Shown piece by piece: positions 19,943 to 45,971 of a stretch of DNA of 64,000 nucleotides. Source of the stretch: Candidatus Beckwithbacteria bacterium GW2011_GWC1_49_16. Lineage in GTDB: Bacteria > Patescibacteriota > Microgenomatia > UBA1400 > CG1-02-47-37. Location of the stretch: positions 517,663 through 581,662 of the forward strand of contig CP011210.1 in NCBI GenBank assembly GCA_001029675.1. Direction: 5' to 3'. Position numbers and translations under genes: made by a program. The notes below the pieces were generated by a model. It did no database searches. It had not been told where the DNA came from and was given only the letters and a program-made list of their open reading frames with translations. Numbering within the stretch: position 1 is the first letter of the stretch; every line of letters starts with the position of its first letter.

Positions 19943-20658
19943 GGTTTATTTTCACCAAAAAACTGGGCCAGGCGGGAAGCAACTTTTCTGGGGTGGGCAA
20001 AGGGCAGATCGTGAGTCGCTTCGGGGAAGACCTTTAAAGTGGCGTGGGGCATCAACTGGCGCATTTTTTCTCCGTCTTTTAGGGGAGTCATTTTGTCTTT
20101 GCCGCCCCAAAGGATCAAGGCGCCGTGGTAAATGTGGGGCAGGTGGCGGGTTTGGTCTTCGCGGGTGACTTGGGCTAAAGTCTGCTTCATCAAGGGCGAA
20201 GCGGTAACATAATCAGATTCGTTGGCCACTCGGTAGATTAATTTTTGGGCCGGGGAAAAAAACCGCTTGAAACCGGGAAGTTTAAAAATCAGCTTGCCGG
20301 ATTTAGCCAAAAGCCAAAAGAGGCTTCTTTTGAGACTCACGGGGGGCCTGACGCCGGCGCTACTGACCAAAACCAGTTTTTTGACCTGGTTAGGGTAGTG
20401 ACGGGTAAAATAAATGGCAATTTGGCCGCCGAAAGAATGACCGACGAGGTTGACCCGGGTTAAACCCGAGGCTTTCAAAAATTCCCTGACCCAGTCGGCG
20501 TAGTTGGCGGTATTCCAGGGCTTGCCTATGGGACCAAAAAAGCCCGGGAGTTTAGGCAAGTAAACCTGAAATCCTTTGTGCTTAAGAAAGCTGATCATTT
20601 TTTCCCAGCGCTGACGCTTGCTGCCCCAGCCGTGGAGAATGACGATTGGCAACGGCAT
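19939..20658 (-). CDS. alpha/beta-fold hydrolase
   Basis: Nucleophile elbow 'LVGHSFGG', HG oxyanion 'VILHGWG', C-terminal His 'ATHDLPF'. Confidence 0.75.
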   Translation of the reverse strand: MPLPIVILHGWGSKRQRWEKMISFLKHKGFQVYLPKLPGFFGPIGKPWNTANYADWVREFLKASGLTRVNLVGHSFGGQIAIYFTRHYPNQVKKLVLVSSAGVRPPVSLKRSLFWLLAKSGKLIFKLPGFKRFFSPAQKLIYRVANESDYVTASPLMKQTLAQVTREDQTRHLPHIYHGALILWGGKDKMTPLKDGEKMRQLMPHATLKVFPEATHDLPFAHPRKVASRLAQFFGENKP

Positions 20659-41895: not shown

Positions 41896-42354
41896 ATGGT
41901 TTCTTCTTTTGTTCCCAAAGACTTTAAAGTTCCAGATGTTTTAGAAACCGACAAGTTTAGGTTGAGAATGCTTAGAATAACCGATGTGGTTAAAGATTAC
42001 GATGCGGTGATGACCAGCGTTGATCATCTTCAGGGCGTGTTCGGGGAAAGATCTAAATGGCCGCCTAAGGATTTAACTTTTGAGCAGGACCTTATCGACT
42101 TAGGCTGGCATCAAAAGGAATTTCAAACGAGATCATCCTTTGCCTACACGGTGATGAGTCCCGACGAAAGCCAATGCTTAGGCTGCGTTTATATTTTCCC
42201 TTCAAGCCGACAAGAATTTGACGCTGATGTCTATATGTGGGTCAGAAAAAGCGAGTTTGATAAGGGGTTAGATCCAATTCTTTTTAAAACTGTTAAAGAC
42301 TGGATTGAAAGTAAGTGGCCGTTTAAGAAAGTGAGTTATCCGGGGCGAGAGTAA
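41896..42354 (+). CDS. hypothetical protein (152 aa), AT-richer, opposite strand
   Basis: ORF with plausible promoter. No confident domain call; possibly GNAT-like, very tentative. Uses AGA/TTA codons that are rare in neighbours. Confidence 0.45.
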   Translation: MVSSFVPKDFKVPDVLETDKFRLRMLRITDVVKDYDAVMTSVDHLQGVFGERSKWPPKDLTFEQDLIDLGWHQKEFQTRSSFAYTVMSPDESQCLGCVYIFPSSRQEFDADVYMWVRKSEFDKGLDPILFKTVKDWIESKWPFKKVSYPGRE

Positions 42355-42446
42355 CTTTCAATCAACCTCAGCAAAAAGGGGAATTTTTGGTACTGGGGGC
42401 CGTCGGTAGAAATAGAAAAATGCTTGGCGCCGGGGATAACTTTCAT
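42336..42446 (-). pseudogene. 36-codon remnant of a YdeN-like hydrolase C-terminus (MKVIPGAKHFSISTDGPQYQKFPFLLRLIESYSRPG), ATGA-overlapping the racemase stop
   Basis: Translation is ~24/27 identical to the C-terminus of hydrolase 44744..45322 (EMKVVPGAKHFSISTDGPNYQKFPFLLELLEK). DNA similarity extends ~100 bp (42371-42475 vs 44792-44895). Confidence 0.6.
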
Positions 42447-43147
42447 GTCTCCGCCAAGATCAGAGCCAAAGCTTTTCTTGCCAGTAAACGGGTTGTGTCA
42501 ATTACCGGAAGAGTCGATAAATTCTCGGGAATAACAATTCCCAGCTCAGTGCAGGCTAGAATCACTGCTTCCGCTCCTGCCTTCTTGAGTTTTTTTATCA
42601 AATCTTTGATGAATTTGAACGATTTAGGAGTTGGTTTGCCTCTGACCAACTCGCCATAAATAACTCTGTTCAATCTTTTCTGATCTGAACTGCTGGGTAA
42701 AATAATTTTAACACCCACTAGCTTTAGCGGCTTTTCGTATAATCCCCCGCTCATGGTTAAACCTACTCCTAAAACAGCCGTTTTTTTATAGTCTTTTTTT
42801 CTACACTCGGTTACGGCCAAATCCACAATGCTTAAAACCCTTATCGATGATAATCTTTTGATCTTTTCAAAAGCGTAATGAACAGAATTGGCCGGAATCA
42901 CGGCAATTTGAGCTCCGTTTGCCGCCAATTTCTTGATTGAACCTGACAGCAATTTAGCGAGACCATTCCAATCACCATTATTTTGAAGTTTTAAAATATC
43001 GGCAAAATTAGGATTATTCAAAGATATTTCCGGGTGTTGATTAGGTCCTAAAATTTTGTCGCTTTCAGCCACAATCGTCCGGTAACATAAACTGGCTCCT
43101 TCAGCCGTCACCCCAACTATGCCAATATGCTTTGACCGCTTAACCAT
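42443..43147 (-). CDS. Asp/Glu/hydantoin racemase-family protein (aspartate-racemase-like)
   Basis: 234 aa. 'IGIVGVTAEGASLCY' N-terminal box and the second catalytic-Cys box 'VILACTELGIV'. Size typical of the family. Confidence 0.7.
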   Translation of the reverse strand: MVKRSKHIGIVGVTAEGASLCYRTIVAESDKILGPNQHPEISLNNPNFADILKLQNNGDWNGLAKLLSGSIKKLAANGAQIAVIPANSVHYAFEKIKRLSSIRVLSIVDLAVTECRKKDYKKTAVLGVGLTMSGGLYEKPLKLVGVKIILPSSSDQKRLNRVIYGELVRGKPTPKSFKFIKDLIKKLKKAGAEAVILACTELGIVIPENLSTLPVIDTTRLLARKALALILAET

Positions 43148-44132
43148 TCATCCCCACTGCTTCGAGCGCCCGGTAAAGATTATTTTCAATTTCAATATAG
43201 CCTGAGTTTAATCTTTGAGTAGCTAAACGATTGCCGCGCTCACCGGGGAAGTTGATTTCTTTAACTCTTTTAAGTTTCTTGGCCTTTTTCACCCTGTTTG
43301 CCAATTTCGACATATTTAACTTAAATAATTTCCTGTCACCTAAAAGATCCGGATCAATCGCCATTGCCAAATTCCCCCAGTTGTTGGCGTGGTTGGCAAA
43401 ATCAATAAAACCGGCACCGACAAAAGGTCCGCATAAAGCTTCAACCACCAAAGCCAAACCGGCGCTTTTGTAGCTTCTGTCAAAAGGCAAAATCGCTCCG
43501 TCTATCGCCTTTCCCGGATCGGTGGTTAATTTGCCTTTAGAGTCGTAAGCCACGTCTCCGGGGATCTTTTTGCCGGCTGTTTTTGCCTGCACCAGGCCAA
43601 AATATGCCATGGCGGCCGTGGCCATGTCCAGCACGATTGGTTGTCCGGTGGAAGGAATGCCGATTGCCAAAGGGTTGGTACCAAACAAAGGCTCATAAGA
43701 TCCGTGGGTGGTTACGATCGGCGGTGAACCGGCAAAAACTAAACCAATCATTCCTTTTTTTGCAATTTTGTTGGCGTAGTAGCCGATTGCTCCGGTCGAA
43801 CTGGCGGTGTTAAAAGTGCCGACAATTCCAAAGCCGTGCTGTTTAGCCTTTTGTAAAGCCAAATCAACTGCTTTACTCACCACCACCATACCCATATTTT
43901 GTTTGCCGTCGATTCTGGCCGAAAGTTTGGTTTGTTTGACCACTTTAATCTTTCCTGCTTTAGAATTTTTAGGAATGCCTTTGCCAATCAGTTTAACAAT
44001 CCCCTGGTTATTTCCCCGCAGCTGGGCATACATCAAAATCTCAAAAATTAGCTTCGTTTCCGATTCGCTATAGCCATAGTGACGAAGTGCCTTTTTGACT
44101 AATTGGTTTAACTTCGAGATTTTAACTTTCAT
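43140..44132 (-). CDS. Ldh_2-family (malate/L-lactate/L-sulfolactate dehydrogenase-like) NAD(P)H oxidoreductase
   Basis: 330 aa. 'HGSYEPLFGTNPLAIGIP', 'GLALVVEALCG' and the overall pattern of the Ldh_2 family. 8-nt overlap with the racemase start. Confidence 0.55.
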   Translation of the reverse strand: MKVKISKLNQLVKKALRHYGYSESETKLIFEILMYAQLRGNNQGIVKLIGKGIPKNSKAGKIKVVKQTKLSARIDGKQNMGMVVVSKAVDLALQKAKQHGFGIVGTFNTASSTGAIGYYANKIAKKGMIGLVFAGSPPIVTTHGSYEPLFGTNPLAIGIPSTGQPIVLDMATAAMAYFGLVQAKTAGKKIPGDVAYDSKGKLTTDPGKAIDGAILPFDRSYKSAGLALVVEALCGPFVGAGFIDFANHANNWGNLAMAIDPDLLGDRKLFKLNMSKLANRVKKAKKLKRVKEINFPGERGNRLATQRLNSGYIEIENNLYRALEAVGMNG

Positions 44133-44151
44133 TTTTTAGTTATCAAATTGT

Positions 44152-44180
44152 AGCAGAAACGGGAATTTTTGTACTGGGGG
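44152..44180. repeat. direct repeat copy C (agcaGaaaCgggaatttttgtactggggg); partner copy A at 42371-42400; parental copy B at 44792-44820 inside hydrolase gene
   Basis: About 30 of 33 nt are identical between copies A and C. The two copies flank the racemase plus Ldh_2 two-gene unit exactly. Copy B is the native coding version (hydrolase-2 C-terminus ...GPNYQKFPFLL). Confidence 0.7.
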
Positions 44181-44183
44181 ATG

Positions 44184-44747
44184 TTACAAATCTAGCTTGT
44201 TTTTGATGACGGCGACAATTTCGGGGAATTTCTTTTTCTTCTTGTCGGCGCCAAAATGACCCTTATCAAGATACTGATGATATTCCGAATTAAGCTTTTG
44301 GTGAATAAAAAGAGGTTCCTTGATGGGAAAATAAGGATCGTCAATCGAGGCAAACTGAACGATCCATTTTTGGTTTTTTCTGATTTTATCCCACTGCCAG
44401 GGTCGGTCAAAGTAACCGCTGGCTTTTTCTTCCTTATCTCCCAGGTCTGTGTAGTAGGAAGCAACTAATATAGAGCCTAGTAGTTGATTTTTCTCGGTAA
44501 AGCGCATGGCGGCGATGGCACCGGAAGAATGGCCGATAAGAATGGTGTTTTTGTCGGCCTTAAGCTCTTCTCTTAAGAAAGGCAACCAATATTTTTCTCG
44601 AGCCAAAACGGGGTCTGGAAAGTCTGGAGTCAAAACTTTAAGTTTTAGTTTTTTAAGTTCTCGGTGAACGTAAGGATGCCAATTGTCTTTGCCGCTACCG
44701 CCGCCGTTGCCGTGGATTTGAATAATTTTAACTTTATTAACCTTCAT
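44184..44747 (-). CDS. YdeN/RBBP9-like serine hydrolase (alpha/beta fold), paralog 1
   Basis: 187 aa. 'KIIQIHGNGGGS', nucleophile 'ILIGHSSGA', C-terminal His 'KGHFG'. Start ATGA-overlaps the stop of paralog 2. Confidence 0.7.
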   Translation of the reverse strand: MKVNKVKIIQIHGNGGGSGKDNWHPYVHRELKKLKLKVLTPDFPDPVLAREKYWLPFLREELKADKNTILIGHSSGAIAAMRFTEKNQLLGSILVASYYTDLGDKEEKASGYFDRPWQWDKIRKNQKWIVQFASIDDPYFPIKEPLFIHQKLNSEYHQYLDKGHFGADKKKKKFPEIVAVIKNKLDL

Positions 44748-45322
44748 ATTACTTCCTGTTGTTTTTTCTTTTCTAGCAATTCTAGCAAAAAAGGGAATTT
44801 TTGGTAGTTCGGGCCGTCGGTAGAAATAGAAAAGTGTTTGGCCCCGGGGACAACTTTCATTTCTCCTTCAAGATCAGCGGCCAAAGCTTTGGTTTCAGCT
44901 AACGGACAATAAGGATCTTCATCTCCGTGGATAAAGATTAGTTTTTTGGCCTTGTTTTTGATTTTGGCATAGTCTAAAGGCGGGTCAAAAAGGTCGACTA
45001 ATGACTCCCAGCCCAAATCGTGGGTAAAGGCGCTAACCAGATAGCAGTTGCCCACTTTTGTTCCAACCGGCAAAGCTTGAAGCAGTCCCAAGGCAGCCAC
45101 TGCCCCTGAAGAATGGCCGATGATGGTGGTATCCTCATTAAACTTAAAGTCTTTGTTTGCCAATAAAAACTGGTTGTAGCGGGCAATGTTGGGTTTGTCG
45201 GCTCCGGGGAGTTGGGGGAGCCAAATCTGGTAACCTTTTGCTTCTAGTTTTTCTTTGAGCCAGGGAAACCAGTTGTCGTTGGTGGTGGCGTTGGTGCCGT
45301 GGAGGATGAGAGCGGATTTCAT
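44744..45322 (-). CDS. YdeN/RBBP9-like serine hydrolase, paralog 2
   Basis: 192 aa. 'ALILHGTNATTNDNWFPWL', 'TIIGHSSGA', 'IHGDEDPYCP', 'GAKHF'. Clearly paralogous to the preceding gene. Confidence 0.7.
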   Translation of the reverse strand: MKSALILHGTNATTNDNWFPWLKEKLEAKGYQIWLPQLPGADKPNIARYNQFLLANKDFKFNEDTTIIGHSSGAVAALGLLQALPVGTKVGNCYLVSAFTHDLGWESLVDLFDPPLDYAKIKNKAKKLIFIHGDEDPYCPLAETKALAADLEGEMKVVPGAKHFSISTDGPNYQKFPFLLELLEKKKQQEVI

Positions 45323-45606
45323 TAGACAAACTTTATCTCTAGCTTTTTACCTAGAGCAGAAGCGAGTTTTTGGAGCAGGCCGACCGAGGGGTTAACCGCC
45401 ATGCTTTCCACCCGGGAAATGACCGCCTGGGTGGTATCGGCTTTTTTAGCCAATTGCCTTTGTGACAGCTTCTTTTCCAGGCGAGCCTTGATTAAAGCCC
45501 TGGTGGCTTGATATTGAGGCTCACTCTCTTCCCAGAGCCTTCTAAACTCAGGGTCTTTGAGCTGTTTCTTTAAAAGCTCGTCTAAAGTAATGTTTTTTAC
45601 CTTCAT
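45322..45606 (-). CDS. XRE-family HTH antitoxin (HigA-like)
   Basis: 94 aa. HTH 'LSQRQLAKKADTTQAVISRVE'. Immediately downstream of a Gp49-like toxin gene. Confidence 0.7.
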   Translation of the reverse strand: MKVKNITLDELLKKQLKDPEFRRLWEESEPQYQATRALIKARLEKKLSQRQLAKKADTTQAVISRVESMAVNPSVGLLQKLASALGKKLEIKFV

Positions 45607-45635
45607 AAATCAACGTTATGATATCTTTTTAGATA

Positions 45636-45971
45636 TCATTTGTCAAGCAGCTGATAATATCTTTTCAAAGCCAAATTAATATCTTTTATCGGTGTTTTGC
45701 GTTTCTTTTTATAAAAAATGTTGAATATCATGATGGTAGATTTGTTTATCTGGGCACAAAGCAATCTAATGTTGTCTTTTCCTAAAATGCGTAACTCCCA
45801 AAAAACAGCGCCGGTTAACTTTTTAAGGCTGGGGTTGGCACGAGTCAAACCAAATTCTTGAAGGTAATAAAGCTGCCTAATTATCTTTGATCTTTGGCCC
45901 TTAGGGCACTTTTCGATAAAATCGTCAATTGGAGATTTTCGCTCTGCCGAAGTAAAAACTTCAACCCTCAT
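45636..45971 (-). CDS. Gp49/HigB-like (RelE/ParE superfamily) type II toxin
   Basis: 111 aa. 'VEVFTSAERKSPIDDFIEK...LQEFG...LKKLTGAVFWELRI.G.NIRLL' pattern of the phage-Gp49-like/HigB family. The toxin-first order is typical of HigBA. Confidence 0.6.
   Translation of the reverse strand: MRVEVFTSAERKSPIDDFIEKCPKGQRSKIIRQLYYLQEFGLTRANPSLKKLTGAVFWELRILGKDNIRLLCAQINKSTIMIFNIFYKKKRKTPIKDINLALKRYYQLLDK

Follow-up and report, generated by a model that had tools for sequence, protein, structure and literature searches.

Two 3'-terminal stumps of a serine hydrolase gene, most likely traces of gene gain, in a hypervariable islet of a Candidatus Beckwithbacteria genome

The 64,000-nucleotide (nt) stretch of DNA analysed here, hereafter called the window, comes from contig CP011210.1 (positions 517,663 to 581,662) of Candidatus Beckwithbacteria bacterium GW2011_GWC1_49_16. 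It contains hydA, an intact gene for a serine hydrolase of the RBBP9/YdeN type, followed by a second hydrolase gene (hydB), a gene for an Ldh_2-family dehydrogenase and one for a protein of the Asp/Glu-racemase family. A hydrolase 3'-end sequence is present here in three copies, all on one strand and within 2.5 kb: the native segment E in hydA, a short copy e' between hydB and the Ldh_2 gene, and a longer copy E'' fused to the 3' end of the racemase gene. The two extra "repeats" are most likely non-functional 3'-terminal hydrolase stumps left by gene gain in a hypervariable islet of low G+C content, and the repeats as a set are very probably scars of illegitimate recombination in which hydA-type genes were truncated. 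A first-pass annotation of the same DNA had also seen the footprint of a recombination at this place, which we confirm. It had pictured the Ldh_2 and racemase genes as a cassette bracketed by its own 30-bp repeats and set into a tandem array of hydrolases, and this picture is not supported: the upstream "repeat" is a stump that lies in place and not a cassette boundary, and hydA and hydB are only 27% identical in amino acid sequence, with one hydA-type gene at this locus in the relatives. The coordinates of all features are collected in Table 1.

The three copies and their reproducibility

A repeat search returned a 136-nt direct repeat (42356-42491 versus 44770-44905, 79% identity without gaps) and a three-copy family at 42364-89, 44146-71 and 44778-803. 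In the gapped local alignment of 42475..42356 with hydA 44890..44770, 104 of 119 positions are identical (87%), giving a score of 148 versus a maximum of 29 among 300 shuffles. The spacer between hydB and the Ldh_2 gene (44133-44183) aligns with hydrolase 3' ends from hydA, E'' and three relatives (loci L005, L013 and L021, see below), with scores that not one of 1000 shuffles attained in any of the comparisons. For a 21-mer taken from the repeat, 0 chance matches are expected in the window at up to three mismatches. The repeat copies of the first-pass annotation are thus present, as is the hydrolase homology that it followed downstream of the racemase gene. Its position for the middle copy (44152-44180) is right, that of the copy behind the racemase gene has to be moved from 42371-42400 to 42370-42399, and the native copy does lie in the hydA 3' end, at 44784-44813 and not at 44792-44820.

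Repeats of 30-136 nt can mislead short-read assemblers, and the first-pass annotation itself had named collapsed tandem paralogs as a possible cause. That the structure arose from collapsed or mis-joined paralogs is extremely unlikely. Twenty-four contigs (up to >1 Mb) were read out of the 123 collection blocks that hold hydA, and the gene order is identical in every one of them, across different samples and assemblers. The independent assemblies, among them an ENA megahit assembly, the ANAN16 scaffold, the SRR1658467 groundwater assembly and an NCBI metagenome-assembled genome, differ from the window by 0-2 single-nucleotide polymorphisms over 4.3 kb. Moreover, at 79-90% identity the repeats are too diverged for collapse, and the frames of hydA, hydB, Ldh_2 and racemase are all intact. 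Since the sampled population is nearly clonal, sequence conservation is uninformative as to selection for the stumps.

None of the scans pointed to a mobile or structured element. Folding of the three copies as DNA gave z-scores of +0.20, +1.13 and -0.35, no better than shuffled sequence; the only outcome of an Rfam scan of 41-47 kb was a sub-threshold chance match to a snoRNA, and a promoter and terminator scan marked nothing at the repeats themselves. The repeat search found no inverted repeats at the ends of the cargo. Neither an integrase nor a transposase figures among the Pfam families precomputed for all called genes that lie up to about 6 kb away in each direction, and Pfam scans of eight local open reading frames (ORFs) did not reveal one either.

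The racemase junction and stump E''

The 3' end of the racemase gene is chimeric, as had been proposed from the letters alone, and its breakpoint is exact. The closest relative of the racemase, protein P0122 on contig L007 (80% amino acid identity), is encoded by a gene which ends AAAGCTTTGG|TAACAAGCCTTTCGTGA (KALVTSLS*, the asterisk denoting a stop codon), with unrelated sequence and no hydrolase sequence beyond. The window racemase gene matches that of L007 up to AAAGCTTTGG and from there on matches hydA from codon 149 (CTCTGATCTTGGCGGAGACATGA versus CCGCTGATCTTGAAGGAGAAATGA); the local alignment of E'' to hydA begins exactly at AAAGCTTTGG. This sequence is common to racemase 3' ends and to hydA codons 145-148, and as a 10-mer has 0.49 expected occurrences in the whole window. 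Its rarity and its presence in the two parental gene types lead us to regard the junction as a microhomology junction. The hydA copy of the microhomology sits within a perfect 12-nt palindrome, CCAAAGCTTTGG (44881-44892).

In 18 members of the racemase family the motif ...DTTRLLA is invariant, KAL comes right after it and the proteins end within 4-6 residues, one longer tail excepted; the C-terminus of the family can be written TTRLLAxKAL+EYSLx. The final seven codons of the window racemase, ALILAET (42466-42446), and its stop codon (42445-42443) are derived from the hydrolase in a shifted frame, which agrees with the earlier remark that the last racemase codons align with hydA codons at the DNA level. 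A 1-nt deletion just past the junction brings the racemase into the shifted hydrolase frame and so supplies the new tail ALILAET*. Through the same deletion the hydrolase frame stays open from an internal Met, out of frame with the racemase, resulting in the 36-codon ORF, which the first-pass annotation had correctly recognized as a hydrolase remnant, its ATG and the racemase stop codon overlapping in ATGA. This ORF is most likely a pseudogene fragment, called as a gene by annotation pipelines.

Stump E'' has the properties of a native gene end. Its tail, LIESYSRPG* with a TAA stop codon, is of a length typical of the hydrolase family, in which there are homologs with comparable tails after LLxLI, and its end overlaps the convergent 152-amino acid ORF by 19 nt, as the end of a native gene would. 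Over 31 codons, 26 amino acids are identical to those of hydA. Compared with E over 26 codons, the proportion of synonymous differences is 0.35 and that of nonsynonymous differences 0.049; that the differences are mostly synonymous weakly suggests that E'' spent much of its time of divergence inside a working gene.

An apparent homology of E'' to the start of the Ldh_2 gene (TGAAAGTTA), which would have implied a tandem duplication of a hydrolase/Ldh_2 junction, was considered and rejected, because the in-frame homology of E'' to hydA (LRLIES versus LELLEK) explains the same bases and because the match goes no further than the stop codon with which the convergent ORF ends.

Stump e' and the second hydrolase

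Stump e' begins 3 nt past the hydB stop codon and ends with its own TAA (44138-44136), 3 nt before the ATG of the Ldh_2 gene (44132). In blastn it is 87% identical to positions 586-616 of locus L021, where the intact arrangement is found: hydrolase stop codon, 16 nt, Ldh_2 ATG. The longest alignment of e' is that with the L013 ortholog (40 columns, score 46), the one with hydA being shorter (26 columns, score 37). From these alignments e' appears to be the final 14 codons, still in place, of a hydrolase gene whose body is lost, and the spacer between hydB and Ldh_2 is a gene relic.

The gene now standing before this relic is of another kind. Although it also belongs to PF06821, hydB represents a different subfamily from hydA. 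Its homologs, which are 46-66% identical, are solitary in all 35 other metagenome loci, and since the N- and C-termini of hydB match theirs the ORF is native from end to end. On these comparisons hydB is lineage-specific cargo, foreign to the locus, that stands between hydA and e'. The e' sequence also continues in the hydB frame past the hydB stop codon (QKFPFLLQFDN*, 44136-44186, HPPVQKFPFLLQFDN*), which we judge to be coincidental because the hydB homologs end at the same position.

Syntenic relatives and the history of the locus

Relatives among related Patescibacteria were found through the context of Ldh_2 homologs and through a genome scan with p265, the 265-amino acid protein encoded next to this region. 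A scan of genome contigs with hydA alone revealed no relatives; repeated with the p265 protein alignment it gave four loci. In L021-L024 the gene order is p265, hydrolase, 16 nt, Ldh_2, 2-Hacid_dh and MraZ, and in L013-L020 it is RecO, GlyRS, p271, hydrolase, cupin, methyltransferase, Ldh_2 and MraZ. L066/L065 have p265, a helix-turn-helix (HTH) gene, the hydrolase, an aminotransferase gene in reverse, Ldh_2 and, with further genes between, a second Ldh_2 and MraZ. Other cargo and no hydrolase occur in L026 (GlyRS, p260, an EamA-like fragment, MraZ), L027 (GlyRS, a p265-type gene, an aminotransferase-like ORF, MraZ) and L028 (p262 and a Phd-like/PIN-like toxin-antitoxin pair), the EamA-like, aminotransferase-like and Phd-like/PIN-like genes being named from their translations.

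At the amino acid level hydA is 52-68% identical to the syntenic hydrolases of L005, L013, L021 and L022, and 47% to that of L066, which identifies it as the ortholog of the single hydrolase at this locus in the relatives. The hydrolase lies one or two genes upstream of Ldh_2 in L013-L020 and L066, and in L013-L024 and L065/L066 the Ldh_2 orthologs, 69-82% identical, come after the hydrolase and before MraZ. With the hydrolase upstream of Ldh_2 in the syntenic relatives, and only 16 nt from it in L021-L024, adjacency of the two is ancestral and the Ldh_2 gene of the window is in its ancestral place; a single hydA-type hydrolase upstream of it is the recurring and probably ancestral state. In none of the relatives examined is there a hydrolase stump, a further hydA-type gene or a hydrolase gene downstream of Ldh_2. 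The uninterrupted hydrolase array that the first-pass annotation had thought relatives might retain did not appear; the syntenic relatives have one hydrolase between GlyRS/p265 and MraZ. In L005, the locus with the closest hydA ortholog (68% amino acid identity), the roughly 550 nt after that gene (1454-1999) contain no ORF of ≥40 amino acids on the hydrolase strand, one 52-amino acid ORF on the opposite strand and no Rfam family at the gathering score.

Upstream of an interior that varies, L013-L029 and L066 share a conserved GlyRS-p265(-hydrolase) block. Conserved flanks around differing interiors mark the left flank as a conserved anchor and the stretch from p265 to MraZ as a hotspot of gene gain and loss. 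In the window this islet (about 41.9-45.9 kb, from MraZ to p265) has a G+C content mostly of 36-44%, with values of up to 50% in the core of Ldh_2 and the 5' portion of hydA, as compared with 49-57% in the flanking core genes, and its extent corresponds to the segment of the locus in which each examined relative differs. Genes of toxin-antitoxin type recur in the hotspot: Gp49 and HTH in the window (45322-45971), the Phd-like/PIN-like pair at L028 969-1680, HTH at L066 356-652 and Gp49 at L067 1910-2221.

The flank and the interior differ in their nearest relatives, p265 being 71% identical to that of L022 and 51% to that of L013, and Ldh_2 82% to L013 and 73% to L021; the gene-tree incongruence which this suggests is mild. 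Within Ldh_2 no breakpoint was evident, sliding identity to L013, L021 and L007 giving no clear switch. Partial intermediates do exist, in that L021 has the hydrolase-Ldh_2 adjacency and L007 has Ldh_2-racemase with the native racemase end.

Origin of the stumps

To a specific model of displacement we give about an even chance. According to it the locus would have undergone two successive replacements, each anchored on the left and ended on the right by microhomology-mediated illegitimate recombination in the resident hydrolase gene. Incoming DNA from a related lineage would pair homologously with the left flank (GlyRS, p265 and the 5' part of the hydrolase gene) and would bring its own complete hydrolase together with extra genes. 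At its non-homologous right end an illegitimate join would then be made, at a short distance into the resident hydrolase gene, the 5' part of which would be replaced while the 3' end would be left in place beside its original downstream neighbour. In one such event [hydrolase-Ldh_2-racemase...KAL] would have been joined to E'' at AAAGCTTTGG, the racemase gaining its seven-residue tail; in the other, [(possibly toxin-antitoxin)-hydA-hydB] would have been joined to e', the 14-codon stump before Ldh_2. Each stump does retain its stop codon next to its natural neighbour, e' beside Ldh_2 and E'' beside the 152-amino acid ORF. From this pattern, and from parsimony (two events for displacement versus at least four for routes by duplication and deletion), we infer that the stumps are what is left of resident genes that were displaced, and not products of a local duplication, and likewise the left anchoring and the order of events. 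The model also draws on the exact racemase breakpoint, the synteny of the relatives and the foreignness of hydB, with supporting signals in the low G+C content of the islet, the mild p265/Ldh_2 incongruence and the mostly synonymous divergence of E''.

Several observations weigh against displacement. E'' is closer to hydA (87% at the nt level) than to any ortholog in the databases (at most about 69-70%), and recent paralogy within the genome would predict the same closeness. The synonymous signal in E'' rests on 9-16 differences and is not significant over 31 codons, a binomial estimate for the E''/hydA differences giving p of about 0.05 versus a model with one neutral branch. No extant intermediate was found in the form of a relative with an uninterrupted hydrolase beside the 152-amino acid ORF or one with hydA-hydB and no e', nor was the full locus of the L007 organism found; the p265/Ldh_2 incongruence is modest; and the hydB/e' junction, for which donor sequence is lacking, offers no microhomology that can be assessed. 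For these stumps an intragenomic origin is the main rival, somewhat less probable than displacement: the hydA-type gene or its 3' part would have been duplicated locally to two or three copies, as a paralog array or as a tandem duplication with its junction at the KAL microhomology, followed by microhomology-mediated deletion of the 5' parts and a separate insertion of hydB. Beyond the likeness of E'' to hydA, which is what keeps this explanation in play, the three copies lie on one strand within 2.5 kb, a microhomology junction suits a deletion as well as an insertion, and reduced genomes are generally prone to deletion. It needs two duplications, an insertion of hydB exactly between copies and two deletions each stopping at a gene boundary, however, and the relatives never show more than a single hydA-type gene at the locus, or a hydrolase downstream of Ldh_2. 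Nor are hydA and hydB recent paralogs, and e' extends further in alignment with the L013 ortholog than with hydA, a weak point since the stump is short.

Other explanations give the repeats themselves a role. If the stumps were kept for a function, which we hold to be unlikely, e' might be a promoter of the Ldh_2-racemase pair, with an extended -10 element TGCTACAAT at 44155-44147, or the 36-codon ORF might encode a small protein. Motifs resembling TGn-TAnAAT do occur in the F-L-L codons of e' (TGCTACAAT), of hydA upstream of hydB (TGCTAGAAT) and of L021 upstream of Ldh_2 (TGTTAAAAT), the version in E'' being degraded to TGCTGAGGT, and the 36-codon ORF is intact, ATGA-coupled to the racemase and different from hydA mostly at synonymous positions. 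However, the promoter scan did not flag the TGCTACAAT site, from which only 14 nt lead to the ATG, leaving almost no leader, and a single upstream promoter (45646-45618) could serve all of the co-directional genes. The 36-amino acid piece of an alpha/beta hydrolase has no GHSSG motif with the nucleophilic serine and so cannot be a hydrolase, and in a near-clonal sample its conservation says nothing on selection. Capture at an att- or attC-like site, the roughly 30-bp sequence having taken up hydB and Ldh_2-racemase as cassettes in tandem at the hydrolase 3' end, is very unlikely. It would suit the layout of intact target, cargo, repeat, cargo and repeat in a single orientation, the cargo units that are nearly exact ORFs, and the adjoining toxin-antitoxin genes. 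It does not suit the lack of an integrase or transposase family in the genes called within about 6 kb, the absence of hairpin potential and of RNA family matches, or the repeats, which measure 45 and 120 nt, are 87-90% identical and have no sharp shared core. In addition, the right junction is accounted for by the racemase/hydrolase microhomology, which is outside the 30-bp repeat; the hydB stop codon and not the 5' part of a hydrolase stands upstream of e'; and the relatives with hydrolase-Ldh_2 adjacency have no repeats. A further reading, quite unlikely in our estimate, combines elements of both: the hydrolase 3' end (around PQYQKFPFLL) and the conserved left flank would form a recurrent, integrase-less capture site for metabolic genes, the stumps possibly being retained as a promoter (TGCTACAAT) or as a racemase-coupled 36-amino acid peptide.

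Comparison with known systems

The nearest likeness to the displacement model is with the displacement arrays of rhs, contact-dependent inhibition (CDI) and type VI secretion system (T6SS) loci. In these C-terminal or 3'-end displacement arrays, homology-facilitated illegitimate recombination (HFIR) has been proposed to account for the strings of orphaned 3' regions in rhs/T6SS effector-immunity loci (Kirchberger et al. 2017, PMC5361080, where Jackson et al. 2009 is cited). Such arrays consist of an intact gene with the orphaned 3' fragments of earlier copies behind it in the same orientation, and here hydA is intact with e' (about 14 codons and stop) and E'' (about 40 codons and stop) downstream on the same strand. 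Acquired genes lie between the fragments, as hydB does between hydA and e' and Ldh_2-racemase between e' and E''; a conserved upstream region serves as homologous anchor, a part that GlyRS-p265(-hydrolase) could play; the downstream join is illegitimate, as the microhomology AAAGCTTTGG at racemase/E'' suggests; and older remnants are pushed further downstream by successive events. In contrast to those systems, the displaced gene encodes a small serine hydrolase of metabolic type and not a polymorphic toxin, its 3' ends are a conserved part of the protein and not variable toxin tips, and no immunity genes are kept, so that there is no evident selective reason for the stumps. The acquired genes, a second hydrolase and Ldh_2 with the racemase, are of metabolic type, and the host belongs to the Candidate Phyla Radiation (CPR)/Patescibacteria.

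HFIR, as defined in PMC3240628, has been obtained experimentally in the natural transformation of Streptococcus pneumoniae, Acinetobacter baylyi and Pseudomonas stutzeri (PMC3240628). One end of the incoming DNA is homologous and the other is joined illegitimately, with insertion and with deletion of resident DNA beside the anchor, an outcome which matches a resident hydrolase gene with its 5' part lost and its 3' part kept. Unlike in those experiments, the donor and recipient states are here reconstructed from sequence. Joins at short microhomologies are a feature of HFIR in transformation systems, and the 10-nt racemase/E'' junction would fit.

Like att islands and integron attC arrays, the locus has direct repeats from the 3' end of a target gene that separate cargo blocks facing the same way. 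It differs from att islands in having no integrase (within about 6 kb), in its repeats of 45 versus 120 nt, 87-90% identical and lacking a common core, in the hydB stop codon, in place of a hydrolase body, upstream of e', and in a junction outside the shared repeat. It differs from attC arrays in that the three copies fold without a hairpin and are hydrolase coding sequence. The target-site duplications of transposons are equally dissimilar, there being no terminal inverted repeats and no transposase, and the repeats being too long and unequal.

Organization of the locus

Table 1. Features of the islet in the window (positions are those of the window; genes on the minus strand are given from start to stop)
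Feature	Position	Strand	Basis or remark
Gp49-type toxin gene	45971-45636	minus	Pfam match
HTH antitoxin gene	45606-45322	minus	Pfam match
hydA, intact, 192 amino acids, RBBP9/YdeN-type serine hydrolase	45322-44744	minus	Pfam PF06821 Ser_hydrolase
E, native hydA 3' segment, codons about 145-184, KALAADLEGEMKVVPGAKHFSISTDGPNYQKFPFLLELLE	44770-44890	minus	homologous to both stumps
hydB, complete 187-amino acid hydrolase	44747-44184	minus	Pfam PF06821
hydB-Ldh_2 spacer, 51 nt	44133-44183		contains stump e'
Stump e', last ~14 codons and stop of a hydA-type gene	44136-44180	minus	PQY[Q/K]KFPFLLQFDN*, 1-nt deletion
Ldh_2-family dehydrogenase gene, 330 amino acids	44132-43140	minus	Pfam, E = 2.7e-83
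Asp/Glu-racemase-family gene, 234 amino acids	43147-42443	minus	Pfam domain complete at residue 226
Recombination junction, 10-nt microhomology AAAGCTTTGG (K-A-L codons)	42466-42475	minus	three-way alignment
Stump E'', hydA-type codons about 145 to stop	42336-42475	minus	hydA homology over ~120 nt, 87%
36-codon ORF (MKVIPGAKHFSISTDGPQYQKFPFLLRLIESYSRPG*), most likely a pseudogene fragment	42446-42336	minus	inside stump E''
152-amino acid ORF, convergent, right-hand neighbour of E''	41896-42354	plus	no family match

The genes from HTH to racemase are all co-directional and are separated by overlaps or by the 51-nt gap: the HTH stop codon overlaps the hydA start and the hydA stop codon overlaps the hydB start. 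The promoter at 45646-45618, which could serve all of them, agrees with the consensus at 11 of 12 positions. The toxin-antitoxin pair (45322-45971, minus strand), part of the variable islet, stands directly upstream of hydA, between hydA and p265. At the other end, the 152-amino acid ORF, which is absent from all relatives examined, is followed by MraZ and the dcw cluster. In an NCBIfam scan the 152-amino acid ORF, p265 and hydB were without match, and hydA had only a spurious one far below the cut-off; a hydA homolog of 61% identity is named "RBBP9/YdeN family" in its NCBI record. Elsewhere in the window, tblastn with hydA detects a distant alpha/beta-hydrolase gene at 20125-20643 (26% identity), which is unrelated to the stumps.

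A protein identical to the racemase is recorded for Candidatus Beckwithbacteria bacterium GW2011_GWB1_47_15. In the racemase family alignment P-A-N-S-V-H stands where Asp/Glu racemases would have their first catalytic cysteine motif (C-N-T-x-H), so that of the two cysteines just the second (CTE, residue 199) is invariant; on this alignment these enzymes may not be classical two-cysteine racemases. The overlapping Ldh_2 and racemase pair (42443-44132) is conserved in distant lineages (L007; L009-L011), and the few racemase homologs that carry a name, with identities of about 52-53%, are from DPANN archaea (Woesearchaeota, Nanoarchaeia and Micrarchaeota). The best NCBIfam similarities, both below the cut-off, are to sulfolactate dehydrogenase and to the cysteate racemase CuyB, and in relatives the same hotspot holds aminotransferase and 2-Hacid_dh genes. 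Together these similarities hint at a module for the conversion of 2-oxo, 2-hydroxy and amino acids that is exchanged among episymbionts.

Significance

The feature is an ordinary recombination scar, unusually well resolved, and represents no new kind of element or mechanism. Its value lies in a record, at nucleotide resolution, of metabolic gene gain in an ultra-small CPR/Patescibacteria genome, in a hotspot bounded by GlyRS and the dcw cluster and by illegitimate, microhomology-mediated joins that truncated a resident gene; such events have rarely been documented in this group of organisms. For annotation it means that the 36-amino acid "gene" of the pipelines is in all likelihood a pseudogene fragment and that the racemase carries a chimeric seven-residue tail. 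Should the displacement model be true, a pattern known from toxin loci (rhs, T6SS) would also act on ordinary metabolic genes in uncultivated episymbionts.

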